Source of the DNA: an uncultured Leptospira sp.
GTDB lineage: Bacteria > Spirochaetota > Leptospiria > Leptospirales > Leptospiraceae
Assembly: GCA_964571605.1 (NCBI GenBank)
Contig: CAZNCS010000001.1
Span: 4,098-68,097, forward strand
Reading direction: 5' to 3'
DNA length: 64,000 bases
In this document: one piece after another, positions 19,922-54,638 of the stretch
Numbering within the stretch: position 1 is the stretch's first letter
How the letters are laid out: every line of letters begins with the position of its first letter
Position numbers and translations under genes: made by a program
Notes under the pieces: generated by a model
Seen by the model: the letters and a program-made list of their open reading frames with translations, nothing else
Database searches by the model: none
Told to the model about the DNA's origin: nothing

Positions 19922-19939
19922 CATAAACGGTTTTTATAT

Positions 19940-19973: not shown

Positions 19974-20110
19974 GCAAATCTTTTGGAACTTCCTTTAAAT
20001 TAAGAAAACAGGCTGCAAGATTTAACAAACCATTTTCAATAAGTATTCGAAGGACAGGAGTTTTTCTTGTCTTTCGATTTTCAAAATCTTTTATTTATTC
20101 TAGTTATTGA

Positions 20111-25729: not shown

Positions 25730-26374
25730 TTATAGATTGATCGTTTTGTTTTGATTCGTATGTTGAGAACGTTCTTCCTGCAATTCTTTCCAACCTAGAT
25801 AAACGTTTCCAAGTCCGGAAATAAAAAATCCAGTTCCTGTCCATATTAGAATTGTAAAAATCCCGATGAGTGGGAAGAAAAGAATGCCGACCCCAAAGAG
25901 TAAGGTTATTATTCCTATAAACATACTCCAGCCCCAGGGATACGATTTATAAACCCGGATATCGAAAGAGAAGGAAATAAAAGCTGTGGCGCGAAAGAGT
26001 AATAAAAATCCAAATACAAAAGGGAGTGTGGCCGCTGTGATTTCGGGATGTAGGAAGAGGAGTGTTCCCACAATCAAATCCAGAATTCCGAGGGTTAAAT
26101 TCCATCCTAAAATTCCGGGGTTTTTCCTATTATAAAAAGCAAAAGTAATTTGGGCGACTCCTGTCACAGCAAGCAGAATGGAAAAGGCTAGTGCAATTCC
26201 AAGATAACTTTGAGCCGGAAAAAGAAGTGTAAAGAATCCCGCTCCGACCCAAATTAGCCCGACAAGAATATGTAGCCACCAATGTTGAGTGTCTTTGAAA
26301 ATGCTAGAAGGCATAAAACCCGTCCTTTTCGTTTGTAATACTTTAATATATTCTGCATTAGGCCGACCTTCCAT
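25730..26374 (-). CDS. HdeD/DUF308 family membrane protein (start may be ATG 26314)
   Basis: WWLHILVGLIWVGAG, two DUF308-like halves, six TMs. Confidence 0.85.
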   Translation of the reverse strand: MEGRPNAEYIKVLQTKRTGFMPSSIFKDTQHWWLHILVGLIWVGAGFFTLLFPAQSYLGIALAFSILLAVTGVAQITFAFYNRKNPGILGWNLTLGILDLIVGTLLFLHPEITAATLPFVFGFLLLFRATAFISFSFDIRVYKSYPWGWSMFIGIITLLFGVGILFFPLIGIFTILIWTGTGFFISGLGNVYLGWKELQEERSQHTNQNKTINL

Positions 26375-26405
26375 TCTTTTTCAATTTTAATTGAATTTCA
26401 AAATA

Positions 26406-26419
26406 TTGATAAATGTCTG
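26406..26419. promoter_or_regulatory. FNR-like box upstream of the hdeD-like gene
   Basis: TTGAT-AAAT-GTCTG, 13/14 identical to the box at 44346. Confidence 0.4.
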
Positions 26420-26511
26420 AGTTCTCGTAATTTTCGATTGTTTTCATTTTGGATTTCCGGAATCCTTATTAGTGCGAGAAGAACTAAGAAGAATTGATAA
26501 CGGGTTAAAGG

Positions 26512-27972
26512 ATGGATTTTAATAAAGACGCCGCTTCCGAAATAGATAAAAAACTAAAGGAAGTCCAGCGTATCAATCAATCGCTTCAGGAAAGTGAAGC
26601 TCGGATGCGAAAAGTTTTGGAGAATATGCCGATTCTTTTTTTAGCAGTGGACGATGCGTTTCGTACGGTTTCTTGGAATCACGAATGTGAAAAAGTGATC
26701 GGATATTCTGAAGAGGAGGTTATCGATAAAGAGAACTTCTTAGTGAATCAATTTTTGCAACGTCAGAAAACGGGTGATTCTCCTTTGGACCCTAAAGTTC
26801 TGGAACCCGATTTTAAGAATTGGGAACTTGAATTGGCTTCGAAGGACGGTAAAACAAAAACAATTTCCTTGTCCAATATCTCTTCCGAATATCCTCTTCC
26901 CGGTTGGAATAAATGGTTCATAGGAGTGGACATCACTCGCACCAAGGAGATTGAAAGAGACTTAAAAAGTTCTCTTAAAGAACTTTCCGATTTTCAGACT
27001 GCGTTAAATGCAGTCTCGATCGTAGCAATCACGGATAAAGTCGGAACGATCATCTATGTGAATCAAAACTTCTGTGATATCAGCGGCTATTCTAGGGACG
27101 AACTTCTGGGACAAAACCATCGAATCATCAACTCCGGCTATCATCCGAAGGAATTTTTCAAAGATCTTTGGAAGACGATTTCTCGAGGGAAAATATGGAA
27201 AGGAGAGATCAAAAACCGAGCCAAAGACGGTAGATTCTATTGGGTGGATACTACCATTTCCCCCATTTTGGACGAATTTGGAAAACCGTATCAATTTTTG
27301 GCGATTCGAAACGATATTACCGAGAGAAAGGCGACCGAAGAAAAGGCTCGGCATGCGGAGAATAATTTAAAAACACTCCAGGACAGAATGAGTCCTCATT
27401 TCCTCTTCAATACATTAAGTATTATTCATTCTTATTTGCAAACGAATCCGGAACTTGCGGACTCTGCGATTCTTATGCTCGCGGATAATTATCGGTTTCT
27501 AACGGACCATGCGGGTCAACAACTCGTTTCTTTCGATATAGAATGGGAGTTTATGGAAAATTATTTAAATCTGTTAAAATTGAGATTTTCGGATTTTATA
27601 GAAGTGGAAATTACTAAGGAAGGGAATTTTCGAAAATGCCAACTTCCTCCTCTAACATTACAACCTTTAGTGGAAAACTCCTATATTCATGGCTTGCGCA
27701 ATAAAAAAGGCAAAGGGAAAATTTCCGTAAATGCGTTTATAGAAGGGGATAAAACCAGCATTATAATACGCGATAATGGAATCGGAATTAATCCGGAAAA
27801 TTTTCATTCTAGAACACTTTCGAATATATCGGAACGGTTGAAATTTTATCTTTACGAATCCGAAGTAAAAATTGAAAACCACCCTGAAGGCGGGGCGGTA
27901 GTCACAGTAACCTTTGACAAACCGAAAAACGAAAAGTTAGGCGATATAGTAATGTATGACCGATCAGAATAG
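26512..27972 (+). CDS. Cytoplasmic LytS-type (His_kinase) sensor with two PAS domains
   Basis: Second PAS LWKTISRGKIWKGEIKNRAKDGRFYWV; H-box MSPHFLFNTL; LQPLVENSYIHG; DNGIG. Confidence 0.9.
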   Translation: MDFNKDAASEIDKKLKEVQRINQSLQESEARMRKVLENMPILFLAVDDAFRTVSWNHECEKVIGYSEEEVIDKENFLVNQFLQRQKTGDSPLDPKVLEPDFKNWELELASKDGKTKTISLSNISSEYPLPGWNKWFIGVDITRTKEIERDLKSSLKELSDFQTALNAVSIVAITDKVGTIIYVNQNFCDISGYSRDELLGQNHRIINSGYHPKEFFKDLWKTISRGKIWKGEIKNRAKDGRFYWVDTTISPILDEFGKPYQFLAIRNDITERKATEEKARHAENNLKTLQDRMSPHFLFNTLSIIHSYLQTNPELADSAILMLADNYRFLTDHAGQQLVSFDIEWEFMENYLNLLKLRFSDFIEVEITKEGNFRKCQLPPLTLQPLVENSYIHGLRNKKGKGKISVNAFIEGDKTSIIIRDNGIGINPENFHSRTLSNISERLKFYLYESEVKIENHPEGGAVVTVTFDKPKNEKLGDIVMYDRSE

Positions 27973-28690
27973 AGAATGGAGAACGTTAATCGGAGAGGCC
28001 GCGGCTCCAACCAGAAAGCTTTTAGTAAGTTACTGTTTGACTCGACCGGAGCTGCGATTGACAAAAGTCGCTAAAGATGGAGAAGAAGCATTAGAATATC
28101 TGCAATCGGAAGAGATAGATCTTGCCTTCCTCGATATCAATCTTCCTTTACTTTCCGGTTTGGAAATTCTCGAAAAATTGGAAAATCCGCCGTACATTAT
28201 TTTTATCACAGCTTCGCGAGATAAGGCGATCGAAGCGTTCGAATTGGGAGCAATCGATTATTTATTAAAACCTTTTTCCAAAGATAGATTTTTTAAATCC
28301 GTCGATCGTTCCATACAATTTTTGGAAAAGAAGGAGGAAAAAACCTCAGGTAATATTTTCAATGAGCACGGGCTTTTTATTTTAGAAAAAGAAAATCATT
28401 TTTTAGTCCCTTATAAGGAGATTAATTATATTTCCTCGAGAGATAATTTCAGTGTAGTTCATACGGAAGAGAGAGAATATGTTACTTACAAGTCGCTGAA
28501 AAGTTTGGAAATGAAACTCCCTCCGTCTAAGTTTATTAGAATTTATAAACAGTATATTATAAACTTGGAAAAATTATCGCATCTCCAAACCGATAATATG
28601 GGGAACTATTCCGTTTATTTGAAAGACGAGGACGAAACTCAATTGCCGGTCGGTCGCAAATATATTTCTAAAATCAAAGAATTACTTTGA
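27956..28690 (+). CDS. LytTR family response regulator with atypical acidic pocket
   Basis: FLDINLP, FITAS, DYLLKPF; LytTR FIRIYKQYIINL and LPVGRKY; overlaps the kinase. Confidence 0.9.
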   Translation: MTDQNREWRTLIGEAAAPTRKLLVSYCLTRPELRLTKVAKDGEEALEYLQSEEIDLAFLDINLPLLSGLEILEKLENPPYIIFITASRDKAIEAFELGAIDYLLKPFSKDRFFKSVDRSIQFLEKKEEKTSGNIFNEHGLFILEKENHFLVPYKEINYISSRDNFSVVHTEEREYVTYKSLKSLEMKLPPSKFIRIYKQYIINLEKLSHLQTDNMGNYSVYLKDEDETQLPVGRKYISKIKELL

Positions 28691-28748
28691 TTTTTTCCCG
28701 CTAGATTCGCCGTTTATCCTTTGTTTCCGCCTAATACGTAGTCGGGAA

Positions 28749-28777
28749 TTGACTTTCCAATTTTCCGCTTTTATACT
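28749..28777 (+). promoter_or_regulatory. Sigma70-type promoter
   Basis: TTGACT, 17-nt spacer, TATACT, about 80 bp upstream of ATG 28859. Confidence 0.7.
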
Positions 28778-28858
28778 TTCCATCAAAAGATTTCGTTTAC
28801 GTTCCGCAATACAATCCAAAGCGGTCTGTTAGAAACGCGATCCGAATGGATTGATTGA

Positions 28859-30247
28859 ATGAGCGACAATACTAAAAAATTAGCAACGATACAGTTTCTT
28901 GGAGGAGCCGGAAGTGTGACCGGTTCCAAATATCTAATTCAAGCCTTTGGAAAAAAGATCCTAGTAGATTGCGGCCTCTTCCAAGGTGAGAAACAATTGA
29001 GGTTATTGAATTGGGATGCTCCTCCATTCGAATCATCTTCGATCGATGCTGTTTTACTGACCCACGGGCATTTGGACCATTGCGGTTATCTCCCTCGGAT
29101 TGTGAAGGAAGGGTTTAAGGGACTTATTTTTGGCACGGATCCTACATTAGATATAGCAAATATAGTTTTAAAGGACAGCGCCAAATTACAGGAGGAGGAC
29201 GCGTATTATGCGAATAAAGGCGGCTATTCCAAACATAAACCGGCGTTCCCTCTTTATGATTCCAAAGACGTAGAGAATACCGTTCCTTTATTCCGATCCG
29301 CAGAACTCAATACTTGGATTTCTCTTAATTCTGATATTAAATTTCGATTTCGATACAACGGTCATATCTTGGGCGCCAGTTTTATTGAGATACAAATCGG
29401 TAAGAAAAAATTGGTCTTCTCGGGAGATATCGGAAGGGATACGGATCGGCTTTTATACGCACCTCAGAAACCGGAGGAGGCCGATATTCTTTTGATCGAA
29501 TCCACATATGGGAATCGAATCCATAGGGGAAATCCGGAAAAACGCCTGATTCAGCTTGTGAATCAATACGCAGAGTCGGAAGGATCGATTATCATTCCCA
29601 GTTTTGCGGTCGAGAGGTCTCAACTTCTGATGTTCCTTCTTTGGAAATTTCGCAAAGAAAAAAGAATCGCAGATATTCCGATCTATATGGATTCCCCGAT
29701 GGGCTTAAATGTTTTCGACGTATTTCAAAAATATGGCGCGGAATGGCATAAACTAACCACCGCCGATTGTAAACAAATCAGCAAAGAAATTATCTGCGTC
29801 ACCGATTCTGGAAAAACAAAAAAAATCGCAAGCGAGAAAGGTCCGAGAATCGTGATTGCAGGAAGCGGAATGGCAACAGGAGGCAGGGTCCTTTCTTATT
29901 TAGAACATTCCCTTGGAGATCCGGAATCTCTTGTGCTTCTCGTAGGTTACCAAGCTTTCGGAACTCGGGGGCGAAATCTTTTGGAAGGAAATACTGAAAT
30001 AAAAATTCGAGGTAAATTCTATGAGGTTCGATGCGAAGTGCAAAGTATAGACGGACTTTCCGCACACGCCGACCAAAAGGAACTTTTAGCATGGATGTCC
30101 GAATTGAATCGAGCTCCAGAGAAAGTTTGTATCGTTCACGGAGAAAAGGATGCCTCTTCCATGTTGGCGTCTAAAATCCAAAAAACCTATAATTGGAATA
30201 CTCTCATTCCAGTCAGAAACGAAGTTTTAGAATTCGAAACCCTTTGA
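28859..30247 (+). CDS. MBL-fold metallo-hydrolase, beta-CASP/RNA-specificity type
   Basis: GGAGSVTGS, VDCGLFQG, THGHLDH, ESTYG, SGMATGGR, SAHADQ, VHGE. Confidence 0.92.
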   Translation: MSDNTKKLATIQFLGGAGSVTGSKYLIQAFGKKILVDCGLFQGEKQLRLLNWDAPPFESSSIDAVLLTHGHLDHCGYLPRIVKEGFKGLIFGTDPTLDIANIVLKDSAKLQEEDAYYANKGGYSKHKPAFPLYDSKDVENTVPLFRSAELNTWISLNSDIKFRFRYNGHILGASFIEIQIGKKKLVFSGDIGRDTDRLLYAPQKPEEADILLIESTYGNRIHRGNPEKRLIQLVNQYAESEGSIIIPSFAVERSQLLMFLLWKFRKEKRIADIPIYMDSPMGLNVFDVFQKYGAEWHKLTTADCKQISKEIICVTDSGKTKKIASEKGPRIVIAGSGMATGGRVLSYLEHSLGDPESLVLLVGYQAFGTRGRNLLEGNTEIKIRGKFYEVRCEVQSIDGLSAHADQKELLAWMSELNRAPEKVCIVHGEKDASSMLASKIQKTYNWNTLIPVRNEVLEFETL

Positions 30248-30368
30248 TTTTTCACCCTGTAAATCCGCCGAAAATCGTTCCAATCCGCGGCATACCTCGG
30301 CGGCCATTGACGGACTTCGTTTTCCTTCGTATGATTTAAACATCCAAATAATAGGGGATAAAAGAACA

Positions 30369-31049
30369 ATGATGATGACTGCAATGAAACCACAAGTTAG
30401 CGAATCTACTTTTTTTGATCGCAAACCGATATTCAAAGAGCTTGCTATTTCAGAGTCCAATGCTCGATTTACGCGGAAACAAGTTCCTAAGAATACGATT
30501 CTTTTTTCGGAAGGAGATCCGGCCACAGGGTTTTACATCGTCGAAAAAGGTTCCCTTCGTTCCTATCGTTCTTCCGGAATAGGCAAACAGCAAACCTTTC
30601 AAATTTATACCCCAGGGGCTTGGCTCGGGTTAAGAGATACGGTTTCCGGAGAAACGTATTTGCACCACGCGATTGCACTTGAGGACTCCGTTGTTCTTTT
30701 TGTGGAAGAAGCGGAGCTCAATCGACTCTTAATTTGTGATTCGGAATTCCAAAAGACCATTTTTCGTCAAGTTGTCAAAGATTCGATCGAGGCGGAGAAC
30801 AAAATATATTCTCTTGGAACCAGGCAAGTTCACGCGAAACTCGCAGAGTTTCTATTGCAGTCCAGAAAGTTCCAAACGGGAGATGTGGATCTTCCTTTTA
30901 CACGCGAGGTGATGGCATCGATCATTGGAGTGACTACGGAAACTTTAGTGCGAGCCTTAACCGACTTGAAAAACAGGGGATGGATCGATATCGATAAACG
31001 TAAAGCATTCATAAAGGATGAGTTGGCACTTCGTAAGTTATTGGATTGA
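30369..31049 (+). CDS. Crp/Fnr family regulator without the 4Fe-4S cysteines
   Basis: LFSEGD, IVEKGSLR, HTH FTREVMASIIGVTTETLVRAL; only one Cys. Confidence 0.9.
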   Translation: MMMTAMKPQVSESTFFDRKPIFKELAISESNARFTRKQVPKNTILFSEGDPATGFYIVEKGSLRSYRSSGIGKQQTFQIYTPGAWLGLRDTVSGETYLHHAIALEDSVVLFVEEAELNRLLICDSEFQKTIFRQVVKDSIEAENKIYSLGTRQVHAKLAEFLLQSRKFQTGDVDLPFTREVMASIIGVTTETLVRALTDLKNRGWIDIDKRKAFIKDELALRKLLD

Positions 31050-31083
31050 ACATCGGGCTCGAAGCTAATTTGGCATAAATAGA

Positions 31084-31755
31084 ATGGTCGAAAATTATGA
31101 GGGCAAACAATTTACTTTTCAGATAAACAGAATCGAGCTTAGTGGCGATTTATTTGTATCTGAGAACTCGAAATCTCTAGTAATTTTGGTTTTAGGAGAA
31201 AAAGAGGATAAGTTTTTAGATCGATTTAAAGGTTTAAAACTGGACCTGAATAAAAAAAACATAGCCACTCTTTTTTTGAAAGGATTACTAACTTCGGAAG
31301 AGAGGGAAGTTTCCGCAAATCGTTTGGACGAATCGCTTTTGGGCGACAGACTTGTTTCCGTAACACGTTTTCTTAGGACCTATTCAGAGACTAAAGACCA
31401 TAGAATTTCTTATTTGAGCTTATCCACCATAGCAGGAAGAATATTTCGTGCCGCATCTATCCTAATCGGCGAAGCGGAAAGTTTGATTCTAATTGGAAAC
31501 GGACTCCAACCTTTAAATTTCGTTTTTTGTAAAACTCCTATTTTGAATGTAGTTGGAGGTTTGGATTTCCGCGGTATCGAATCGAATAAGCTAGTCCTTT
31601 CCAAAATAGATGCACCCTTAAAAATAATCCATTCCATCCAAGGATCCCCGAGCAATTTTGAAGAAAAAGAAAAATGGTCTCTTGTTTCTTCTGCGATTCA
31701 GAAATGGTTTTCTTCTCCGACAACAAGAATGACCGACTTTACCTCGGAAGGCTGA
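31084..31755 (+). CDS. Degenerate dienelactone-hydrolase-like alpha/beta protein
   Basis: LSGDLFV, GLLTSEE, LGDRLVSVT, PILNVVGGLD; catalytic motifs are altered. Confidence 0.55.
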   Translation: MVENYEGKQFTFQINRIELSGDLFVSENSKSLVILVLGEKEDKFLDRFKGLKLDLNKKNIATLFLKGLLTSEEREVSANRLDESLLGDRLVSVTRFLRTYSETKDHRISYLSLSTIAGRIFRAASILIGEAESLILIGNGLQPLNFVFCKTPILNVVGGLDFRGIESNKLVLSKIDAPLKIIHSIQGSPSNFEEKEKWSLVSSAIQKWFSSPTTRMTDFTSEG

Positions 31756-31766
31756 TTTGTATAAAA

Positions 31767-31790
31767 AAGCTCTCTTTGGAAAGAGAGCTT
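31767..31790. terminator. Bidirectional intrinsic terminator
   Basis: AAGCTCTCTTT-GG-AAAGAGAGCTT between convergent genes. Confidence 0.7.
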
Positions 31791-31822
31791 AGAGTTAGCT
31801 TTTTATGAATCCTCTCGGATAT

Positions 31823-32035
31823 TTATTTTTTTGCGGGACAGGTATTCCACCCGAATAATGAGTATAAAGGACAAAAGCCGAGTAGTCCCGTTAATAAAGG
31901 AACTAGTCCAAATACCATCAGACCGGTACCAACCAAGCCCTGCGTCATGACGCCCATAATAATCAATACCAATCCGGCTAAAATTCGGGCGGCTCTATCT
32001 AGATTTCCTAAGTTTAATTTCATGGAAACCTCCAT
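31823..32035 (-). CDS. DUF2892 (YgaP-like) small membrane protein
   Basis: NLGNLDRAARILAG and LLTGLLGFCPLYSLFGWNTC. Confidence 0.9.
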   Translation of the reverse strand: MEVSMKLNLGNLDRAARILAGLVLIIMGVMTQGLVGTGLMVFGLVPLLTGLLGFCPLYSLFGWNTCPAKK

Positions 32036-32109
32036 AATATCTTTAGTTATTATTATCCATCGTATCGAAAATAGTAAGTCGTTTATGGTTTTGGATATTG
32101 AAAAACGTA

Positions 32110-32123
32110 CTGATAATTATCAG
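32110..32123. promoter_or_regulatory. FNR-like palindrome upstream of DUF2892
   Basis: CTGAT-AATT-ATCAG, perfect 14-bp palindrome. Confidence 0.55.
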
Positions 32124-32136
32124 GCAAAAACGGGGT

Positions 32137-34689: not shown

Positions 34690-34735
34690 ATTTATCGGGG
34701 ACGTTTTTTAAATTTCTGTAATAAACTATTCGTCC

Positions 34736-35491
34736 TCAATGGTGATGAGAGTGGACATGTTCTATATTCGAATCTATAGGATTTGTATGTTCACCGTGTT
34801 GGTGGCCGAATCTGAATGCGATCATTAGAATGGAAACTACGACGGCAAGTCCTCCGGCGATACGTATTATTTTTCCTTTAAATTTGGATAATATCGAAGT
34901 GAATCCGATTCCGAAGGCGAATAAGAGAGGGAAGGTTCCTAAAAAGAACGACACCATAATCGCCGATCCTAAAAGGGGAGATCCGCTTGCAAACGCAGTA
35001 ATAAATGCAGGGTATAGAATCCCACATGGTAATAAACCAGTAAGCAATCCGAAAGAAAAACCTAATATTACGATCCGATTTGATTTTAATGGTCCGCTTC
35101 TCAATTCGCCTAAAATCGGTTTTGCCAGTTTTCCCATCAACCTACCCAAATACATATTTGAGCCTGGGGATTTTCCAAAGAATAAATACAATCCCATAAC
35201 AGCGAGAAAGAAAATCCCGATCCAAGCGGCGATTTCTTGGAAGGGCAAAAGACGAGATAATACTATATTTGTGCCTTCCCCTAAAAAACCAAGTAAGAGT
35301 CCGATTAAGGAGTAAGAAAGAAGTCGCCCCGAATTATAAGAGAGTTGTAGGATCGAGTTTTTGGATTTCTCCGAAGGAGAAAGAAAAAGTGTGAGAGTCC
35401 CGGCAAGTGGGCCGCACATTCCGACACAATGTAAGGATCCCGTTAGTCCGTTTAAAAATGCGGCGCCAAATAAGGCAAAAGAGAGATCCAT
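34736..35491 (-). CDS. Sulfite exporter TauE/SafE-like (DsbD_2) cbb3-associated membrane protein
   Basis: SLHCVGMCGP, YNSGRLLSY, GLLPCG, His-rich tail. Confidence 0.85.
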   Translation of the reverse strand: MDLSFALFGAAFLNGLTGSLHCVGMCGPLAGTLTLFLSPSEKSKNSILQLSYNSGRLLSYSLIGLLLGFLGEGTNIVLSRLLPFQEIAAWIGIFFLAVMGLYLFFGKSPGSNMYLGRLMGKLAKPILGELRSGPLKSNRIVILGFSFGLLTGLLPCGILYPAFITAFASGSPLLGSAIMVSFFLGTFPLLFAFGIGFTSILSKFKGKIIRIAGGLAVVVSILMIAFRFGHQHGEHTNPIDSNIEHVHSHHH

Positions 35492-35650
35492 CTATTTGTC
35501 TTCCTTCGGATTTTCTTCTTCGAAAAGCATTCTATATTTCGGACCCTCGATATCGTCGTATTGGCCCGTTCGATAACTCTGTATAAAAACGTAAAACGCT
35601 CCGAAAGCGATCATAAGTGCTATCGGAATCATAAGATATAATGCGTTCAT
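35492..35650 (-). CDS. ccoS: cbb3 oxidase maturation protein CcoS (absent from the ORF track)
   Basis: Hand translation MNALYLMIPIALMIAFGAFYVFIQSYRTGQYDDIEGPKYRMLFEEENPKEDK*, with the GQYDD motif; ATGA overlap with ccoI. Confidence 0.92.
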   Translation of the reverse strand: MNALYLMIPIALMIAFGAFYVFIQSYRTGQYDDIEGPKYRMLFEEENPKEDK

Positions 35651-38091
35651 ATAGAGATCCTATTTTTCATGGAAATGGAATTTAGAACCACAGTGAGAGA
35701 ACTTAGAGTCATAAATCCAGCGCAAATTACAGGAAGCATAAGTCCGGAAGCAGCAAGAGGAATCATTATAGAATTATAAATAATGGAAAGAAAAACATTC
35801 TGTAGAATTATGGATCTGGTTTTTCGTGAAATGGCGATCGATTTTGGCAATGAATCCAATCGATTTTTAACCAGTACTACGTCGGAACGATCCAGAGATA
35901 GATCCGAGCCCATTCCCATTGAAATTCCCAAATTGGATTGTGCAATACAAACCGAGTCATTGATACCGTCTCCGACCATAACCACGGTTTCTCCTTTTTC
36001 CTGCGCTTGCTTGATCCGGTCTCTTTTTTGGATGGGTGAAAGGTCGGAAGAATACTCTGTAATACCTAACTCCTCGGCTAATGTGCGGACTTTATCGTAG
36101 GAATCTCCGGAAAGTATTTCTATGTTTGGAATGAATTTTTTAATTTTGCGAATACTTTCCTTCGCTTCTAATCTTGCCTTATCTCCGAATTCCCAAGCAG
36201 CTAAAGGGAGTCCATTCGCGGTCAAATAGATCCATCCGTCGTTAATTTCGTTCTGATCGATCGTAAAGTTTCGGTTTCCGATCTTATATAAAATGTCTGT
36301 CCCGTTTTTTGCTTCGATTCCTTTGCCCGGGATTTCTTTGATATAACTCCAATGTATACTGTCTTTTTTTGTTTTTGAATTTTGTTTCTCCTCATCCTCG
36401 GAAAGTGTACGAACGAAGGAGCGTGCAATCGGATGCGCGGAATATTTTTCTAAATTTATTCCCAAATTGCGATAATAGCTTATATTATTTTGGTCACCGA
36501 AATTTTTCTCGGATTTTAATTCCAATTTTCCGGAGGTCAATGTTCCCGTTTTGTCAAAAAAGATACGATTTGCTTTGGCAAGTATTTCAGCTGTTTCCGG
36601 GTTTTTGATTAGAACTCCTTCTTTGGATTGTATCCAGTGGCCTACAACTAAAGCGGCGGGAACACTTAGGCCTAATGCGCAGGGGCAGGCTACGATTAAA
36701 ACGCTGATCGTATTCAGGATTGCATTTTCTATGGAACCGAAGTACCACCAGAAAGAAAATGTTCCGAGAGCCACAACTAAAACGATTTCGATAAAAACAA
36801 CCGCCACTCGATCTGTAACTCTTTGGATTTTGGGTTTTGTCAAAAGAGAATCTTCCAATAGTCTTCCGATTTTTGCCAGAGTACTTTCTCTGGATGTTCC
36901 AAAGGATCTGATAGTAATATTACTGGAAAGACAGACAGATCCTGCTTTTACTTCTTCTCCTTTTGTCTTGCGGATCGGTTTACTTTCCCCGGTTAACACG
37001 GATTCGTCGAAGAAGGCTTCGGAATTTTCAATTTCACCGTCCACTGGCGCGCGACTTCCGTAAGATAAACCGATTATATCGTTTTTTTCGATCGAGGAAG
37101 TGGATCGTTTTTCCCAGGATTCGTTTCTTTTTACATCGTATTCCTCAGGGATTAAGGAAAGCAATTCTCCGATTTTCATTCCCGCCTTATAACGAATCAT
37201 AGCCTCCAGATATTTTCCTAAAAGTATGAAGAAGTAAATCGTGCAGACAGAATCGAAATACACTTCTCCATTTCCCGATATGGTGACGTAAATACTGTAA
37301 AAATACGCTAGAGCTACTCCTAAGAATAAAAGAGTATCCACGGAAAGAATATGACGTTTCCAGGATTCATATGCTCCTTTCCAAAATGGATAACCGGAGT
37401 AGAAAAAAACAGGGGTTGCTAATATCCAGGAAACATAATGGAAAAGATTTTTAATATTCAATTCCATTCCTTCGAAATACCCGGCATACAGGCTTGCGGA
37501 AAATAGCATGATATTCCCCCAACAAAACCCGGCCACCGTCATTCGAAACGCCAAATCTTTAAAAGGTTTTTCTACTTTTGATTCCGATTTTAAGGGAGAA
37601 TATAAACTGGGTTTATATCCAAGTTCTCGGATGGAATGAAAAATTTTTTCCAAGGAAACTTTTTGTGGATCGAAAACCAGTTTTAGTCTTCCTGTCCCGA
37701 AATTGATTCTCGCCTCTTGGACACCCGAAATTTTACTTGTGGCTGTTTCGATCAACCAGACACAAGCAGAACAGTGGATTCCGGAAACTGTAACGAACGT
37801 GCTCCCCATTCCATTCGGTAAATTTTCGACATATTCGGAATATACAGAAGTATTATCTATGTTCGTATCGGATTCGGCGATATTCTTTTCTAATTTGGTA
37901 GGACCTATAATTTGAGTCCCTCTGATTTGATAAAAATGATCTAATCCGCTCGTAAGTAATAAGGCGGATAAGGTTGCGCATCCATTGCAGCAGTACTCTC
38001 TTTGGATTCCATTATGATTCGTGAATACTGGTTTTTCATCTATTATGGAATTGCAATGAAAACAGACGGTTTTAATCTTAGAATCGTTCAA
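35647..38091 (-). CDS. ccoI: cbb3-associated Cu P1B-ATPase CcoI/FixI
   Basis: CFHC...CCNGC N-domain, HCSAC, CPC, DKTGTLT, GDGIND; position in the cco operon. Confidence 0.9.
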   Translation of the reverse strand: MNDSKIKTVCFHCNSIIDEKPVFTNHNGIQREYCCNGCATLSALLLTSGLDHFYQIRGTQIIGPTKLEKNIAESDTNIDNTSVYSEYVENLPNGMGSTFVTVSGIHCSACVWLIETATSKISGVQEARINFGTGRLKLVFDPQKVSLEKIFHSIRELGYKPSLYSPLKSESKVEKPFKDLAFRMTVAGFCWGNIMLFSASLYAGYFEGMELNIKNLFHYVSWILATPVFFYSGYPFWKGAYESWKRHILSVDTLLFLGVALAYFYSIYVTISGNGEVYFDSVCTIYFFILLGKYLEAMIRYKAGMKIGELLSLIPEEYDVKRNESWEKRSTSSIEKNDIIGLSYGSRAPVDGEIENSEAFFDESVLTGESKPIRKTKGEEVKAGSVCLSSNITIRSFGTSRESTLAKIGRLLEDSLLTKPKIQRVTDRVAVVFIEIVLVVALGTFSFWWYFGSIENAILNTISVLIVACPCALGLSVPAALVVGHWIQSKEGVLIKNPETAEILAKANRIFFDKTGTLTSGKLELKSEKNFGDQNNISYYRNLGINLEKYSAHPIARSFVRTLSEDEEKQNSKTKKDSIHWSYIKEIPGKGIEAKNGTDILYKIGNRNFTIDQNEINDGWIYLTANGLPLAAWEFGDKARLEAKESIRKIKKFIPNIEILSGDSYDKVRTLAEELGITEYSSDLSPIQKRDRIKQAQEKGETVVMVGDGINDSVCIAQSNLGISMGMGSDLSLDRSDVVLVKNRLDSLPKSIAISRKTRSIILQNVFLSIIYNSIMIPLAASGLMLPVICAGFMTLSSLTVVLNSISMKNRISI

Positions 38092-38579
38092 GGTTCGATC
38101 CGTATCTGTTTCGTTTTTTCCAACAAACCTTCCTTAGTTTTTGCTGAAATACTGATCCGCCAAGATCCCGAAAATGGAATTTCCAATTCGCCCGAATAAT
38201 TTCCTTTATCGATTTCTTTTAATAGAAGTGTTCGGTTGAAAGTGTCACTTGCACTTCTTTCTAGTTTAAGTTGAATTTGCGCGCCGGAGATCGATTCTTT
38301 TCCTTTCTGAAATCTTACGGATATATTCTGTTTACCCGGTTTGAGTGAGGTCGGCTGACTGAGCCAAGGTGTATGGAGTTCGTATCCCATCTTCACCATT
38401 TCACGTTGGGAAGCTACGGTTTGGTCGTATTTCAAACCTTTTTCGTAATAGTTTGAATCTACCGGAGGAGTATGACCTGCCACTGCGATTCGAACCGTAA
38501 CGAATGTCGCTGTAAATAGTAGCGCGAAGGTAATCCCGATTAGAACGAATGCTTGTTTAAGGCTTCTGTGCATGGGCAA
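38088..38579 (-). CDS. ccoH: FixH/CcoH family protein
   Basis: Single TM, VDSNYYEKGLKYDQ; lies between ccoG and ccoI. Confidence 0.8.
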   Translation of the reverse strand: MPMHRSLKQAFVLIGITFALLFTATFVTVRIAVAGHTPPVDSNYYEKGLKYDQTVASQREMVKMGYELHTPWLSQPTSLKPGKQNISVRFQKGKESISGAQIQLKLERSASDTFNRTLLLKEIDKGNYSGELEIPFSGSWRISISAKTKEGLLEKTKQIRIEP

Positions 38580-39936
38580 TCCTCGTATTATTTGTATTTT
38601 GTTTTTGAACCAAACTTAAGGGTAAAAGAAAAGGAATGTCGATTGATTTGTTGAAATTCGGATCTAGGATATCCGCTATTTTCAAACGAATCTCGTGACT
38701 TTTTTGAGTTATGTCTTCGGGAGTTGCATTTAACTCGATGAACAAACGATATCTTTTTTCGGAATTGCCGGGGAGTTCAACCGTTGCGTTGACGGTTCCT
38801 CCTACAAGTATTTTACGAATTCCTTTTAGATCGGTTTGCTCTATTTCAAAATGGAGAGTACGATCGATAACTGTCAGATTTTGCATTTGCACTTCGTAAA
38901 AATTTCTAACAATTCCTTCTTCCAAAACCTGAGGTTGGATATTTCTATCCGCGATAATCGATAGATACAAAGGTACTCGTTTCCATAAGAGAAGGCTTAG
39001 AACAGAAAGAACCAGAATAAGAGCGCTCGAATAAAGAATTGTTCTTGGGCGGATCCATTGGATTTTCGAATCTTTTTGTTCGATCTGATTTTCGGACCAA
39101 TATCCGATCAGAGTTTTTTTATTTTCTTTCGCCATTTGTTGAGTGCAGGCATCCGAACATTTTCCGCAGGCGATACATCCTACGTTAGTTCCCTCTCGGA
39201 TATCGATTCCTGTAGGACAAACGACCAAACACATATTGCAAGCGGTGCAATCTCCTATTTTTACCTTTTCCTTTCTTCTAGGTTCTCCTCTTTGGAAATC
39301 ATAAGTGATGTTTACTGAGTGAGCGTCCATCATCACAGTCTGAAAACGTGCATAAGGACATGCGTATTTGCAGAACTGCTCTCGGATAAAGGCGATATCC
39401 GCATACATGGCAAAGGTAAAGAAAGCGAGATATCCCGACCAACCGGGTATATTTCCGTTTGTTTTCAAATCCATTATGGAATCTATCATACGATGCGGAT
39501 CCGCAAAATATGAGACCCATGCAGATGAAGCAAGTAGGCTGACTAAGATCCAAGACAGATGAGTGGAAATTTTGGGAAATAAGGGCGCGTCTTTTTTACC
39601 GTATTTAGAACCTTGGAGGAATCTTCCGATTCCGTCGAAGATATCCGTATAGATCGTTTGCGGACAGCCCCAACCGCACCAGACTCTTCCGATTAACGTA
39701 GTGAAGAAGAATAAGGCCAAGCCCATTCCCATCAGAAATAAATGTAGAAAGTAACCTTCTTGGGGAGTGAAAATATTTCCTAAAAGAAAGAATTTTCTAT
39801 CCGGTATATCCAAGCGTATGAGAGGCATTCCGTTCCAACGGAACCAAGGAGTGACAAAAAAAACGAAAACGAGAATGGACTGCACGTAGTACCGTGCAGT
39901 TCTAATTTTACCGGAGATAGGTCGTGAAACGATCAT
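38557..39936 (-). CDS. ccoG: cbb3 accessory 4Fe-4S protein CcoG
   Basis: GRVWCGWGCPQT, FCKYACPYARFQ, CTACNMCLVVCP, CIACGKCSDAC. Confidence 0.95.
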   Translation of the reverse strand: MIVSRPISGKIRTARYYVQSILVFVFFVTPWFRWNGMPLIRLDIPDRKFFLLGNIFTPQEGYFLHLFLMGMGLALFFFTTLIGRVWCGWGCPQTIYTDIFDGIGRFLQGSKYGKKDAPLFPKISTHLSWILVSLLASSAWVSYFADPHRMIDSIMDLKTNGNIPGWSGYLAFFTFAMYADIAFIREQFCKYACPYARFQTVMMDAHSVNITYDFQRGEPRRKEKVKIGDCTACNMCLVVCPTGIDIREGTNVGCIACGKCSDACTQQMAKENKKTLIGYWSENQIEQKDSKIQWIRPRTILYSSALILVLSVLSLLLWKRVPLYLSIIADRNIQPQVLEEGIVRNFYEVQMQNLTVIDRTLHFEIEQTDLKGIRKILVGGTVNATVELPGNSEKRYRLFIELNATPEDITQKSHEIRLKIADILDPNFNKSIDIPFLLPLSLVQKQNTNNTRIAHAQKP

Positions 39937-39973
39937 TTTACATTCCTTCTTTTCACAACTTTTCTCCCTGCTA

Positions 39974-40507: not shown

Positions 40508-40511
40508 AAAA

Positions 40512-40658
40512 TCAATCCTCCTCTAACATTCTATATTTGGGTTTTTCCATTCTGTCTTTCCGCGAACGACGATATACATAAAGGAAAATAATCGAAATTG
40601 CGATCATCATGATCGGCAAACGAAGTGATTTATAAATTTGTAAAGTATCTAGATCCAA
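40512..40658 (-). CDS. ccoQ: cbb3 oxidase subunit CcoQ (absent from the ORF track)
   Basis: TTG start after a GAGGA RBS; MDLDTLQIYKSLRLPIMMIAISIIFLYVYRRSRKDRMEKPKYRMLEED*; lies between ccoO and ccoP. Confidence 0.88.
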   Translation of the reverse strand: MDLDTLQIYKSLRLPIMMIAISIIFLYVYRRSRKDRMEKPKYRMLEED

Positions 40659-40668
40659 AGTTCGTTCC

Positions 40669-41358
40669 TCATTGTAGACTTTTTGCGAGTTCCGCTCCGT
40701 CTCTTCCTAATTTGAGAAGATAGGCGATGAGAGCGTCGCCCTCAGTTTTGCCGGAAACAAGAGAGGCGACCGCTTCGATCTCCGCGTCTGAGTATGGAAC
40801 GCCGACTTTTCTAAGACCTTTCATATGATCCGCTATTTTAGTCGGATCCAATAAGGCGGATTCTGCAAAGAGCCAAGGATAGGACGGCATGATAGAACCT
40901 TTGGCGGTATCTCTTGGATTGATTAAATGTGTCTTATGCCACTCCGCGGAAGGTTGGATCTGGGACTCATGAGCCAGATCCGGTCCTGTCCGTTTAGAAC
41001 CCCAAAGAAAAGGATGATCATACACATATTCTCCCGCTTTGGAATACCCGTCTTTACCGTAGGATTGTTGGGGATCGAAACGATCTACTTCCCATTTGAA
41101 AGGGCGAATCATTTGGGTGTGACAGTTATTACATCCTTCTTTTTGATAAATATCCCTTCCTGCCAATTCTAACGCGTTATACGGCTTTGTTCCTGATATT
41201 GGCTCCGCGGTTTTGGTAAGAAAGAACGGCGGAATGAGTTCGAAAATTCCTCCGATTAGAATCGCTACCATCGTATATAGAGTGAATTTAACTCCGTTTT
41301 TTTCCCATTGGTCCGTAAATCCGGAGAACCAATCCAATAATTTGTCGAACCAATTCAT
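40669..41358 (-). CDS. ccoO: cbb3 oxidase subunit II CcoO
   Basis: ELAGRDIYQKEGCNNCHTQMIRP, WGSKRTGPDLA, MPSYPWL. Confidence 0.96.
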   Translation of the reverse strand: MNWFDKLLDWFSGFTDQWEKNGVKFTLYTMVAILIGGIFELIPPFFLTKTAEPISGTKPYNALELAGRDIYQKEGCNNCHTQMIRPFKWEVDRFDPQQSYGKDGYSKAGEYVYDHPFLWGSKRTGPDLAHESQIQPSAEWHKTHLINPRDTAKGSIMPSYPWLFAESALLDPTKIADHMKGLRKVGVPYSDAEIEAVASLVSGKTEGDALIAYLLKLGRDGAELAKSLQ

Positions 41359-42794
41359 ACTGTATTTACCTCTTTGTTCCCGACTCTTAAGTCGATCTCT
41401 TTGAAACCGGAACCAGATGTAGTCATCGTACGAATCAGGTTATAAATCATTACGATTAAACCTACGAAGTAGAGACCACCTCCGATCGCTCGAAACAATC
41501 GATACGGTTTTAATGTTTCAGTGATTTGAACCCAGTTTGGATATTTAAGTGCACCGGTTTCGTCTATCGCTCTCCACATAGCTCCTTCTGTGATACCGGA
41601 AACCCACATGGAAACTATATAGAGTAGGATTCCAAGTGTAGCTATCCAGAAGTGAATATTGGCTAATTTTTCCGAATATAGATTTGTGTTCCACATTCTG
41701 GGAACAAGATAGTATAGAACCGCAAAGGACATCATTCCAACCCAACCAAGTGTTCCGCCGTGAACGTGTCCGATAATCCAATCTGTATTATGGCCAAGCG
41801 CGCTGATCGATCTAAAGGAGAGTAACGGACCTTCGAACGTCGCCATACCGTAGAAGGTAATCCCGACCAATAACATTTTTAAGGTCGCGTCCGTTTTGAT
41901 TTTCTCTTTGGCCTGTGTAAGTGTCAAAAACCCGTTTAACATTCCTCCCCAAGAAGGCATCCATAACATGATACTGAATACTACGCCGGTAGTTTGTAGC
42001 CAATCGGGAAGAGGAGAATAAAGCAAGTGGTGAGGACCTGCCCAAATATAGAGGAAAATCAAACTCCAAAAATGGATAATCGATAATCTATGGCTGTAAA
42101 TCGGCTGTTTGATATGTTTGGGAAGATAATAATACATTAGTCCCAAGAACGGGGTAGTAAGTACGAATGCCACTGCGTTATGGCCGTACCACCATTGGAT
42201 ATTCGCGTCGTATACACCCGAATACACTGAGTAAGACTTAATCCAACTTACCGGAACGGAAAGATTATTAACAATGAATAGAATAGGGATCGTTACCCAA
42301 GACGCGATATAGAACCAAATTGCCGCATAGAGTTGTTTCTCTTGTCTGGTGAAAATGGTTCCAAAATAGTTGATAATGAAAATTACGAACCAAATTACGA
42401 TCAGCAAATCCAAAGGCCATTCGAGTTCGGCATATTCTTTAGATTGATTCATTCCAAGCGGTAGTGTGATCGCCGCTAAAATGATTGTTAGATTGTAGAG
42501 TACGAAATGTAATTTCGCAAGTTTATCGCTCCAAATGCGAACTCTACAAAGCCTTTGTACAGTGTGATATCCGGTCGCAAAGATGATGCTTAATGCGAAT
42601 CCGAAAATAGCTGCATTAGTATGCAATGGGCGAAGCCGGCCGAAAGTGAAATACGGTCCGATATTTAATTGCGGATAAACCATCTGAAAGGCAATCCAAA
42701 CTCCAACTAGCATGGAAGCAACGCCCCAAACTAAAGCCGAAAGTAGGAAACCTTTGACGATTCCGTCGTTGTATTTTTGTTCTAAAGAACTCAT
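41355..42794 (-). CDS. ccoN: cbb3 oxidase subunit I CcoN
   Basis: FGRLRPLHTN, WWYGHNAVAF, WAGPHHL, IIGHVH. Confidence 0.97.
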   Translation of the reverse strand: MSSLEQKYNDGIVKGFLLSALVWGVASMLVGVWIAFQMVYPQLNIGPYFTFGRLRPLHTNAAIFGFALSIIFATGYHTVQRLCRVRIWSDKLAKLHFVLYNLTIILAAITLPLGMNQSKEYAELEWPLDLLIVIWFVIFIINYFGTIFTRQEKQLYAAIWFYIASWVTIPILFIVNNLSVPVSWIKSYSVYSGVYDANIQWWYGHNAVAFVLTTPFLGLMYYYLPKHIKQPIYSHRLSIIHFWSLIFLYIWAGPHHLLYSPLPDWLQTTGVVFSIMLWMPSWGGMLNGFLTLTQAKEKIKTDATLKMLLVGITFYGMATFEGPLLSFRSISALGHNTDWIIGHVHGGTLGWVGMMSFAVLYYLVPRMWNTNLYSEKLANIHFWIATLGILLYIVSMWVSGITEGAMWRAIDETGALKYPNWVQITETLKPYRLFRAIGGGLYFVGLIVMIYNLIRTMTTSGSGFKEIDLRVGNKEVNTV

Positions 42795-42893
42795 TCTTGA
42801 TTTCTCCGGTTTTTCCGTGAGGAATATTTTCCATTCTCTTTATTGGAATGTTGGAGAGCAAGAAATCCGACTTAGAATCGTTCGGATTCGACT

Positions 42894-42907
42894 ATGATAT
42901 ATGTCAA
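42894..42907. promoter_or_regulatory. FNR-like box upstream of ccoN
   Basis: Coding strand TTGAC-ATAT-ATCAT versus the FNR consensus TTGAT-N4-ATCAA; 100 bp upstream of ATG. Confidence 0.6.
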
Positions 42908-42986
42908 GATTTGATCTTTAAGGATTCGATCCTTAGGCGCGAATTAAATAAATTAGAAATATATTATGCTTATTCTGATTTGAGAA

Positions 42987-44264
42987 TCAAAATCCGGTAA
43001 ATCTTTCCCGGGCTTCTTTTTCCAAAATCTCCCGATGAGAAGGATGCGCTATTGAGATAAGAGCTTTGGCTCTTTGTTTTAAATTTTTTCCGTAAAGATT
43101 CACCGAGCCAAATTCAGTCACCACATAATGAACGTTGGCACGCGTTGTTGTGACACTCGCACCGGGTTTTAGAATAGAAACAATTCGAGATTCTCCTTTG
43201 GACGTTATAGACGGTAGAGCGATGATTGGTTTTCCTCCTTCTGACAAAGAAGCTCCTCGGATAAAATCCATTTGGCCTCCAACTCCCGAATATTGACGAG
43301 TACCAATGGAATCCGCGCAGATTTGCCCGGTTAAATCCACTTCGATTGCTGAATTGATGGCGGTTACTTTGGGATTACGACGGATATTATCGGTGTCGTT
43401 AATGTATCCTATGTCCAGAAAGATTGTTTCCGGATTATCATCCACGAAATCGTAAAGTTTTCTAGTTCCCATCACAAAACCCGTCACAATTTTTCCGGGG
43501 TGAGTGTGTTTTTGTGATCCGTCGATGATACCTTTTTCGACCAGCGGAATCACACCATCGGAGAACATTTCCGTATGAATTCCTAGGTTTTTATGATTCC
43601 CTAAACAAGAAAGTACTGCGTTCGGGATGGCGCCGATTCCCATTTGTAAAGTTGCTCCGTCTTCGACTAAATCGGAAATATGTATGCCTATTTTTTGGGC
43701 GATCGGATCCTGAGGATAAGCTGCCGTTTCTAAAAGAGGAATATTTCCTTCGACTATATGATGGATTTTGTTTACATGTATGATTCCGTCTCCATGAGTT
43801 CTGGGCATATAACTGTTAACTTGGGCGATGATCAGTTTTGCGGAATCTACGGCGGCCTTACTGATATCCACCGATACACCCAAAGAACAAAATCCGTGTT
43901 TGTCGGGAGGAGAAACGGATATAAGTGCAATATCTAAAGGTAATATTCCTTTTCTGAATAAAGAAGGGCATTCGCTCAAAAAGGCAGGAAGGTAGTCGGC
44001 ACGACCTTCTTGGACCGCTCGGCGCATATTTGCCCCCACAAAAAGGGCATTCGTTCTAAAAGCTGCTTCGGTTCCAGGCATAGCGTAAGGAACCGTGCCC
44101 TCCGTGTGTATATGCACGATTTCAATATCTTTTAAATTGTCGGATCTTCGCGCTAAAGCCTCTATAAGTAGGGAAGGAGCTGCATATACGCTATGGATAA
44201 AAATTCTTTGTCCGCTTTTCACTTCAGAAACTGCTTTGTCTGCCGAGATAAAATTGATTCCCAT
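42987..44264 (-). CDS. Acetyl-CoA hydrolase/4-hydroxybutyrate CoA-transferase family protein
   Basis: LQMGIGAIP, HTEMFSDG, INSAIEVDLTGQ, GVGGQMDF, YVVTEFG. Confidence 0.93.
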   Translation of the reverse strand: MGINFISADKAVSEVKSGQRIFIHSVYAAPSLLIEALARRSDNLKDIEIVHIHTEGTVPYAMPGTEAAFRTNALFVGANMRRAVQEGRADYLPAFLSECPSLFRKGILPLDIALISVSPPDKHGFCSLGVSVDISKAAVDSAKLIIAQVNSYMPRTHGDGIIHVNKIHHIVEGNIPLLETAAYPQDPIAQKIGIHISDLVEDGATLQMGIGAIPNAVLSCLGNHKNLGIHTEMFSDGVIPLVEKGIIDGSQKHTHPGKIVTGFVMGTRKLYDFVDDNPETIFLDIGYINDTDNIRRNPKVTAINSAIEVDLTGQICADSIGTRQYSGVGGQMDFIRGASLSEGGKPIIALPSITSKGESRIVSILKPGASVTTTRANVHYVVTEFGSVNLYGKNLKQRAKALISIAHPSHREILEKEARERFTGF

Positions 44265-47715: not shown

Positions 47716-47745
47716 TAAAAATATAAATTTTGGACAGCAAATACA

Positions 47746-54631: not shown

Positions 54632-54638
54632 GTGTGAA

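Follow-up and report, generated by a model that had tools for sequence, protein, structure and literature searches.

A cbb3 oxidase locus and an adjoining candidate regulatory cascade in an uncultured groundwater Leptospira

We describe a locus for a cbb3-type cytochrome oxidase in an uncultured groundwater Leptospira. It occupies positions 25730-44264 of a 64,000-nucleotide stretch of contig CAZNCS010000001.1 (the whole stretch is called the window hereafter) and holds the operon ccoNOQPGHIS-dsbD_2 together with convergent genes for a soluble sensor histidine kinase, a LytTR response regulator and a Crp/FNR-family regulator (Table 1). On balance, we favour reading the region as a native cbb3 oxidase locus with an adjoining, dedicated regulatory module, which would work as a three-tier cascade. 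Confidence differs between the parts of this reading: it is high for the cbb3 locus being native and having a conserved FNR-type box, and for the link from the kinase/LytTR pair to crp it stays slightly below even.

Oxidases of the cbb3 family are high-affinity oxidases. Leptospires are grown, and regarded, as obligate aerobes, yet they endure in oxygen-poor places: water-logged soil, biofilms and kidney tubules. A preliminary description, made from the letters of the window, had presented these 18 kb as a microaerobic or dormancy-like island with a self-contained hypoxia programme. Its gene list stood: every gene named there is an open reading frame (ORF) at the position given, and Pfam and NCBIfam agree with the assignments, with qualifications for four names (HdeD, DLH-like, CcoQ and P2A ATPase). 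The contiguity that it reported is real and, for the core, exceeds chance, since several species show the same order. Conservation of synteny across Leptospira, a check that it had itself proposed, also held for the core.

A native cbb3 operon with a conserved upstream box

Locus contexts were retrieved with homologues of h223 (a 223-residue protein encoded next to crp) and by CcoG alignment, and were mapped by tblastn. Clades follow PMC12769562: P1 (L. noguchii, L. ellisii, L. gomenensis), P2 (L. haakeii, L. sarikeiensis, L. fluminis, L. perolatii) and S2 (L. kobayashii, L. idonii), 'Mane' and SA-E8 being unclassified isolates. The operon ccoNOQPGHIS-dsbD_2 was present in every named Leptospira retrieved (P1, P2, S2, Mane and SA-E8), and also in sister Leptospiraceae metagenome-assembled genomes (MAGs). 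Identity of the window CcoN was 88-93.5% to L. kobayashii, 'Mane', L. idonii and the P2 species, and 82-83% to the P1 species; an exact-protein look-up found no identical CcoN on record. Two groundwater metagenome runs contain about 64-78% of the words that were sampled from the cco segment. Together with the identities of CcoN and of the regulator proteins, this assigns the window to an uncultured Leptospira, the genus that the preliminary description had guessed.

The operon had been called full, and it is indeed complete with its assembly genes; CcoQ is assigned by position, its FixQ score being sub-threshold. The ccoQ frame is kept in position, with 75-85% identity in the P2, S2 and 'Mane' loci and 51-64% in the P1 species and the Leptospiraceae MAGs. 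Directly downstream of ccoN, ccoO overlaps it by 4 nt, and dsbD_2 comes after ccoS in all the named Leptospira retrieved. The canonical CcoP is a dihaem protein of about 290 residues. The window CcoP has one cytochrome c domain and one CXXCH, and is therefore monohaem, not dihaem; it has the same length in L. kobayashii and L. sp. 'Mane'.

The preliminary description had set such an operon against a genus regarded as aerobic; it is no surprise there, given its presence in every Leptospira locus retrieved and its existing annotation in L. borgpetersenii as a nine-gene operon (LBJ_RS08105-08145), ccoN-O-(Q)-P-G-(H)-(I)-S-TauE/SafE (PMC8055020). The gene order there is that of the window, with dsbD_2 annotated as TauE/SafE, and the seven genes of the operon that are given in its transcriptome tables changed in the same direction, by 5.7- to 11.6-fold, in keeping with co-expression of the operon. 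In that paper the genes are only listed as differentially expressed, and a regulator, a box or a link to oxygen is not discussed. Our literature search found no paper on low-oxygen regulation or cbb3 function in Leptospira.

A horizontally acquired island, which would have brought cbb3 respiration to an aerobe that otherwise has only aa3, is hardly credible in view of these data. It drew on a first scan with CcoN, in which the matches listed comprised one Leptospiraceae MAG (81%) followed by Myxococcota and Bacteriovorax at about 60%. That early list was misleading: the later h223 and CcoG scans recovered the operon from many Leptospira, across three clades, and from the sister MAGs, with CcoN at 82-93.5%, and the foreign origin of the cco operon was refuted. 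Composition agrees, GC content being uniform at about 0.40 (0.38-0.43) along the whole region. No tRNAs, mobility genes or integrases were found in the region, and an Rfam scan of the whole window gave no RNA family. The repeat search returned only short matches at chance level, none of them flanking the ATPase/YgaP segment. On the right flank, beyond the end of the region, the order CoA-transferase, 7TMR-DISM hybrid kinase, NarL-type regulator, ThiM and PEBP is the same in P2-type genomes. Since GC is uniform, tRNAs, meaningful repeats and mobility genes were not found in the region, and the right flank is syntenic, the region is best regarded as native chromosomal backbone; the term island does not fit it.

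Phylogenetic footprinting was applied to the 260 nt upstream of ccoN in 17 Leptospiraceae loci. The main conserved block was TTGAY-N4-ATCAW, found in 15 of the 17 loci with its surroundings diverged. Its usual place is about 112 nt upstream of ccoN: the distance to the ATG is 101-114 nt in 13 loci, and the box is at -195 in two P1 species, which carry an insertion. In dinucleotide shuffles, only 0.23 loci with such a match were expected, and the maximum was four in 200,000 simulations. A box of this type is a classic mark of regulation by low oxygen. Two Leptospiraceae MAGs, MS012 and FW.030, have the perfect FNR consensus TTGATAATTATCAA at this site. A strict scan for that consensus (TTGAT-N4-ATCAA, at most one mismatch) gave no match in region 25730-44264; it missed the ccoN box because the window copy has two mismatches, at degenerate positions. 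A conserved GGATTTCTTGC downstream of the ccoN box was considered as a sigma-54 site and discarded, the GG…GC spacing being wrong.

The window holds a second FNR-type box, a perfect palindrome placed before ygaP and just past the end of the P2-type ATPase gene. Boxes at comparable places were found in L. ellisii (cTGATATTTATCAt, 77 nt before ygaP) and in L. hartskeerlii, where a ygaP-ATPase operon without linkage to cco has TTGATATTTATCAG 107 nt ahead of it. In L. hartskeerlii ygaP forms a pair with the gene of the ATPase orthologue, and in L. ellisii it sits with the regulator module.

Elsewhere in the window, at 5686-5699, the gene of a PAS histidine kinase (4746-6242, minus strand) contains within its reading frame a perfect FNR-consensus palindrome, TTGATTCCGATCAA, which is probably a chance occurrence.

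The regulatory module and the proposed cascade

The kinase consists of an N-terminal PAS-like region, a PAS domain of the flavin adenine dinucleotide (FAD) type at residues ~165-280, a LytS-type His_kinase domain and a HATPase domain. Its second PAS domain is 57% identical (62/109) to PAS-A of MmoS (PDB 3EWK, E 5.5e-42), Aer and NifL being the next matches. All three of these proteins sense redox state with bound FAD (PMC9668731), and the kinase keeps the residues T, H, N and R that the same study points out in the FAD pocket. NCBIfam also returned YtvA/LOV matches; a LOV photoreceptor was ruled out, since the domain reads GQNHRIINSG and lacks the NCRFLQ cysteine, and since MmoS, Aer and NifL match far better.

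LytTR regulators, as known from AgrA- and BtsR-type sites, typically bind direct repeats about two helical turns apart, just upstream of the -35 element. The predicted sigma-70 promoter of crp has a -35 TTGAC that is invariant in an eight-species alignment. Upstream of it lies a conserved block whose 18-nt element, TTCACCC-N3-AAATCCGC, is exact in five species and degenerate in Mane, L. ellisii and L. perolatii, with one copy per locus.

Among NCBIfam models, the Crp protein matched FtrB best (75 bits), then FixK (73 bits), and reached the equivalog cutoff of neither. It has no N-terminal Cys cluster, and its single Cys (…LLICDSE…) is not conserved in orthologues. The missing cluster and the FtrB/FixK matches make it FixK-like, not FNR. 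Direct sensing of O2 by a [4Fe-4S] cluster is therefore excluded, the protein having no conserved Cys. Its recognition helix, TTETLVRAL (E--VR), is found in all cco-linked Leptospira orthologues, with E and R kept and S replaced by V; the orthologues themselves were found solely in Leptospira.

These elements suggest the following cascade. The soluble kinase would read the redox or oxygen status of the cell through its FAD-type PAS domain. It would then phosphorylate the adjacent LytTR regulator, which in turn would bind the direct-repeat block and turn on crp. The FixK-like Crp, with no Fe-S cluster of its own, would bind TTGAY-N4-ATCAW boxes. Acting from the ccoN box, it would turn on ccoNOQP-ccoGHIS-dsbD_2, with transcription reading through into the P2-type ATPase gene; the second box would act on ygaP. 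In this scheme, we infer the protein-DNA assignments, the sign of regulation and the low-oxygen or reduced-redox signal.

The order kinase-LytTR-(β-CASP)-Crp-h223, convergent on dsbD_2, was found in L. kobayashii, Mane, L. haakeii, SA-E8 and L. sarikeiensis, and in rearranged form in L. perolatii. Against the S2 species, 'Mane' and most P2 species, the regulator proteins show 60-87% identity. For the kinase, identity is 75-79% in most other Leptospira retrieved and 62% in L. perolatii; for the LytTR regulator it is 74-87% across the Leptospira retrieved. The module does not adjoin cco in L. idonii, L. fluminis and the P1 species, and in L. ellisii the module (kinase, LytTR, h223, ygaP, crp) and the cco operon are on different contigs. 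Among 79 cbb3 loci from outside Leptospira, a Crp homologue was nearby in eight; homologues of LytTR, β-CASP, h223, YgaP and CoA-transferase were nearby in none (0/79). An older comparative analysis found L. interrogans and L. borgpetersenii to be without the LytTR and Crp regulators (PMC2964297).

Several observations weigh against the proposed cascade. The E--VR helix is not the E--SR of FNR and FixK, so that the target of Crp could differ from the box. The predicted binding of FAD by the kinase would make it a reporter of redox state, and not necessarily of O2, as is the case for such PAS domains. The crp-upstream block is a candidate LytTR site by virtue of its position and of its 20-bp repeat geometry. 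The ccoN box is degenerate in L. noguchii, and no comparable box was found before the DUF308, kinase, β-CASP, crp, h223 and CoA-transferase genes of the window. P1 species keep the ccoN box, with a Crp orthologue that is unlinked (L. ellisii) or only 42% identical (L. noguchii). Because L. idonii and L. fluminis have the box and no adjoining module, another regulator may read it. None of the RNA runs searched for the window sequence contained it. Finally, the loci retrieved cover P1, P2, S2 and unclassified isolates; the S1 clade (L. biflexa group) did not appear among the matches listed.

Part of this evidence would also suit a neighbourhood without wiring, in which the ccoN box serves another regulator or signal (NO, carbon, redox) and the module is an independent unit. 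The module of L. ellisii without cco beside it, the cco operons of L. idonii, L. fluminis and the P1 species without the module beside them, the E--VR helix and the lack of LytTR, β-CASP and h223 homologues in the vicinity of all 79 outside loci speak for it. We nevertheless regard it as unlikely, for three reasons. The L. ellisii module carries ygaP with the same type of box, so that this box accompanies both the module and cco. Adjacency of module and cco is kept in S2, P2 and 'Mane' despite 50-90% protein divergence. Lastly, the cco-linked Crp orthologues all share one helix, distinct from the E--SR helix of a nor-linked Dnr-like paralogue in L. perolatii.

That paralogue belongs to a cluster of its own (L116, 3948-6901), with a norCB-like pair (COX1 and cytochrome c) and CbbQ/VWA genes; two boxes lie in its divergent promoter (6078 and 6124), and a P-ATPase orthologue is 3 kb away. 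It suggests a separate NO-responsive Crp regulon in some Leptospira.

For the window, then, a three-tier cascade at a native cbb3 locus remains the favoured reading. With a conserved FNR/FixK-type site and a redox-sensor cascade as its neighbour, low-oxygen respiration looks built into the genus, not part of a separately acquired dormancy island.

Neighbouring genes and the dormancy reading

The features of the region are listed in Table 1.

Table 1. Genes and predicted sites between positions 25730 and 44264 of the window
Feature	Position	Strand	Basis or remarks
DUF308 membrane protein	25730-26374	-	Pfam DUF308 E 9e-20; weakly HdeD-like
Soluble sensor histidine kinase	26512-27972	+	Pfam PAS, His_kinase PF06580 (LytS-type), HATPase
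Response regulator, REC + LytTR	27956-28690	+	Pfam; NCBIfam BtsR/LytR-like; start overlaps kinase gene
β-CASP metallo-β-lactamase (MBL) ribonuclease	28859-30247	+	Pfam MBL + Beta-Casp + RMMBL; TTHA0252/CPSF73-like
Conserved crp-upstream block	30251-30288	+	TTCACCC-N3-AAATCCGC; second AATCCGC 20 bp later
Predicted sigma-70 promoter of crp	30307-30335	+	TTGACG, 17 nt, TATGAT
Crp/FNR-family regulator	30369-31049	+	Pfam cNMP_binding + HTH_Crp_2; FixK type
h223, 223-residue lid-less α/β-hydrolase	31084-31755	+	AlphaFold model and family profile vs PDB 2O2G
Bidirectional intrinsic terminator	31767-31790	.	10-bp stem, then T-run; divides two convergent gene sets
YgaP-like TM (DUF2892) small membrane protein, two Cys	31823-32035	-	Pfam E 5.5e-21
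Second FNR-type box, cTGATAATTATCAg	32110-32123	.	Perfect palindrome; 14 nt past ATPase stop, 75 nt before ygaP ATG
P2-type cation ATPase, LMCA1/SERCA-like	32137-34689	-	Pfam Cation_ATPase_N/C
DsbD_2 family membrane protein	34736-35491	-	Pfam E 1e-43; final conserved gene of cco operon
ccoS	35492-35650	-	Pfam FixS
ccoI (Cu P1B-ATPase)	35647-38091	-	Pfam ATPase-cat_bd + HMA + E1-E2_ATPase
ccoH	38088-38579	-	Pfam FixH
ccoG	38557-39936	-	Pfam FixG_C + Fer4_18
ccoP, 177 residues	39974-40507	-	Pfam FixP_N + one cytochrome c domain, one CXXCH
ccoQ, 48-residue ORF	40512-40658	-	Position; FixQ 20 bits vs cutoff 29 (sub-threshold)
ccoO	40669-41358	-	Pfam FixO E 5.4e-68
ccoN	41355-42794	-	Pfam COX1 E 1.8e-114
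FNR/FixK-type box, TTGACATATATCAT	42894-42907	-	113 nt upstream of ccoN ATG
Acetyl-CoA hydrolase/CoA-transferase family protein	42987-44264	-	Butyryl-CoA:acetate-like, under cutoff

The preliminary description implied that all the listed genes form one self-contained DosR-like island, co-induced at low O2. A P2-type ATPase and a protein of the dienelactone hydrolase (DLH) fold are present, as this would have it; a low-oxygen locus of Burkholderia also combines a cation ATPase, a metal-dependent RNase and CRP regulators, and in L. kobayashii an HSP20 gene stands beside the module, at the place of DUF308 in the window. These points are outweighed, and the dormancy island strikes us as improbable. 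Universal stress proteins (USPs), α-crystallin, a nitroreductase and components of the DosS/DosT/DosR type (a GAF-haem kinase with a DosR-type regulator) were all absent from 25730-44264. Boxes stand solely at ccoN and ygaP, and the outer limits of the supposed unit are not conserved. The DUF308 gene and the placement of ygaP and the P2-type ATPase gene between h223 and dsbD_2 are specific to the window, and β-CASP and CoA-transferase are variable. There is no compositional or mobility signature, and h223 lacks its putative catalytic His. What survives of the hypoxia programme is the cbb3 operon, the sensor pair, Crp and the conserved ccoN box, with the box of the ygaP-ATPase pair in another species, where the pair is unlinked from cco; a unit of all the genes does not.

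The L. kobayashii locus has further neighbours. A CCP_MauG peroxidase and a SoxA/TsdA-type cytochrome c adjoin, with HSP20, the same regulator module (L084, 600-5011), and beside ccoN is the gene of a large molybdopterin oxidoreductase that has Pyr_redox and BFD domains (19505-20627 of the same locus).

Two genes of the module have no place in the proposed cascade. The β-CASP protein carries an HGHLDH motif and has RNase TTHA0252 as its top PDB match (E 4e-71); its gene has the same position in L. kobayashii, L. haakeii and SA-E8, is rearranged in L. perolatii, and was not found in the Mane, L. sarikeiensis and L. ellisii loci. The other, h223, had no Pfam or NCBIfam match even at E 10, Pfam DLH included. 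Its AlphaFold model (pLDDT 84.8, pTM 0.87) had as top Foldseek match PDB 2O2G, a 'dienelactone hydrolase' (TM 0.78-0.81), then other DLHs and esterases, and the profile of its family, a family restricted to Leptospira, matched 2O2G with E 3.5e-24. The name DLH-like thus holds at the level of the fold, and fails for Pfam and NCBIfam matches and for the catalytic His. S114 and D161 are invariant in the alignment. Residue 191 (codon 31654-31656) is Asn in the window and His in 10 of 10 Leptospira homologues (SPSNF versus SPSHF), where it aligns with the catalytic His of 2O2G. Contigs of two metagenome runs match the window at the Asn codon. The substitution may leave the window copy without catalytic activity. 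Both the β-CASP RNase and h223 are conserved passengers of the regulator module, with no role assigned.

The DUF308 protein had been named HdeD. Family membership is confirmed; the HdeD name claims too much, since the protein scores 44 bits against an equivalog cutoff of 189. In tblastn searches, no DUF308 homologue was found within 10 kb of the regulator module in any relative mapped, which places the gene, on synteny, at the periphery, outside the conserved module. The CoA-transferase is a conserved neighbour in P2 species and is variable elsewhere. DUF308 and CoA-transferase are neighbours, and not demonstrable members of the circuit.

For the P2-type ATPase, the P2 architecture and the relation to LMCA1 were confirmed, and a subtype such as P2A was not, every NCBIfam subtype model scoring under its cutoff (429 bits against 798 for the top one). 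The closest relative of solved structure is the Listeria Ca-ATPase LMCA1 (E 4e-115), followed by SPCA and SERCA. DKTGT and GDGVNDA are visible in the alignment. Ca2+-ATPases have Ca2+-site residues in M4 (the Glu of PEGL) and M6 (N…D). In the window protein M4 reads IPEELP, with Glu kept; M6 reads ELIIDPS against NLVNDS in LMCA1, with Asp kept and Asn replaced. Because the gene starts only 46 bp past dsbD_2, it is probably co-transcribed with the cco operon in this genome. Many P1 and P2 Leptospira have an orthologue with 50-65% identity, encoded at a different chromosomal locus. A single-protein pattern scan with the ATPase gave only relatives of 31-40% identity; it is insensitive and no evidence of absence.

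A 30-kb part of the window (8518-38091) holds four P-type ATPases: a CopA-type (8518-10845), an MgtA-type (20111-22720), the P2-type (32137-34689) and CcoI (35647-38091), with many PAS kinases around them.

To the right, divergent from the CoA-transferase gene, positions 44554-48384 of the window encode a 7TMR-DISM hybrid histidine kinase and a NarL/FixJ-type response regulator. The kinase adjoins cco also in Mane, L. idonii and P2-type genomes, and the regulator in these except L. idonii. The pair could be an extra input to the cbb3 locus. Farther on, at 51982-55615, a Family 2A encapsulin shell gene (51982-52923; NF041162, 524 bits) is followed by its cysteine-desulfurase cargo (52910-54631; NF041166, 859 bits) and, on the opposite strand, by a serine O-acetyltransferase gene, cysE (54704-55615). 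By these matches, the three genes seem to make up a complete encapsulin locus for sulfur handling in a Leptospira. Three sizeable ORFs of the window have no Pfam or NCBIfam family: 23628-25622 (664 residues), 11007-12824 (605 residues) and 22749-23303 (184 residues).

Relation to known oxygen-responsive systems

The conserved cbb3 operon with its FNR/FixK-type box, accompanied in many species by a redox-sensor cascade, amounts to a concrete candidate circuit for low-oxygen respiration with its promoters and boxes, one Crp and one kinase/LytTR pair, and the layout is shared by culturable species such as L. kobayashii and L. haakeii. The P2-type ATPase/DUF2892 pair is a candidate member of the same regulon. 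The ccoN box is kept even in pathogenic (P1) species in which the regulators are lost or moved; if the rebuilt cascade entertained below holds true, micro-oxic respiration would be an ancestral, regulated trait in a genus treated as obligately aerobic. The finding is not new in kind, cbb3 operons under FNR/FixK boxes being textbook knowledge and the operon being already annotated in Leptospira genomes.

The closest parallel is the FixLJ-FixK system of rhizobia and Caulobacter, in which a PAS kinase acts through a response regulator and a Crp/FNR activator without Fe-S on a TTGA-N6-TCAA-type box at the cbb3 operon. The parts differ. FixL has a haem-binding PAS and a HisKA core, whereas the window kinase has an FAD-type PAS and a PF06580 core. 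FixJ is a regulator with a NarL/LuxR-type helix-turn-helix (HTH) domain, and its counterpart here is LytTR. FixK reads TTGAT half-sites with an E--SR helix, in contrast to E--VR of the window Crp. With FixK-type regulators this Crp shares the cNMP-like domain and Crp HTH, the lack of Fe-S ligands, the conserved adjacency to cbb3 and the box (15/17 loci); the helix is not shared. We tentatively entertain, as somewhat less likely than not, that a FixLJ-FixK-like low-oxygen cascade has here been rebuilt from non-homologous parts, a flavin-PAS LytS-type kinase, a LytTR regulator and an E--VR Crp, with a regulon of cbb3, ATPase and DUF2892.

Control of cbb3 by FNR in E. coli or Anr in P. aeruginosa uses a TTGAT-N4-ATCAA box, which is perfect in the two MAGs and has two mismatches in the window. 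FNR ligates its Fe-S cluster with an N-terminal Cys cluster and a central Cys, whereas the Leptospira Crp has no conserved Cys at all.

The lxa locus of B. cenocepacia, a strict aerobe, is induced by low oxygen and includes Anr-like CRP regulators, a two-component system, a metal-dependent RNase, a cation ATPase and a TGA-N6-TCA motif (PMC3721108). Its CRP regulators, two-component system, metal-dependent RNase and cation P-type ATPase are shared with the window, and it is the nearest precedent for the broader notion of a low-oxygen gene cluster in such an aerobe. It comprises, however, about 50 genes, mostly USPs, α-crystallin and metabolic genes, with no cbb3 operon at its core, and those hallmarks were not found in 25730-44264. 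The DosR system of M. tuberculosis relies on GAF-haem kinases and a NarL-type regulator, neither of which is found in 25730-44264.

On the sensory side, the kinase resembles MmoS, NifL and Aer in its PAS domain, down to the four flavin-pocket residues. The outputs of these proteins differ from that of the LytS-type kinase, which has no tie to methane monooxygenase, nitrogen fixation or chemotaxis. A cbb3 locus under an FNR/FixK box, with regulators of its own, thus follows a known logic, in a variant of the wiring that is possibly new.

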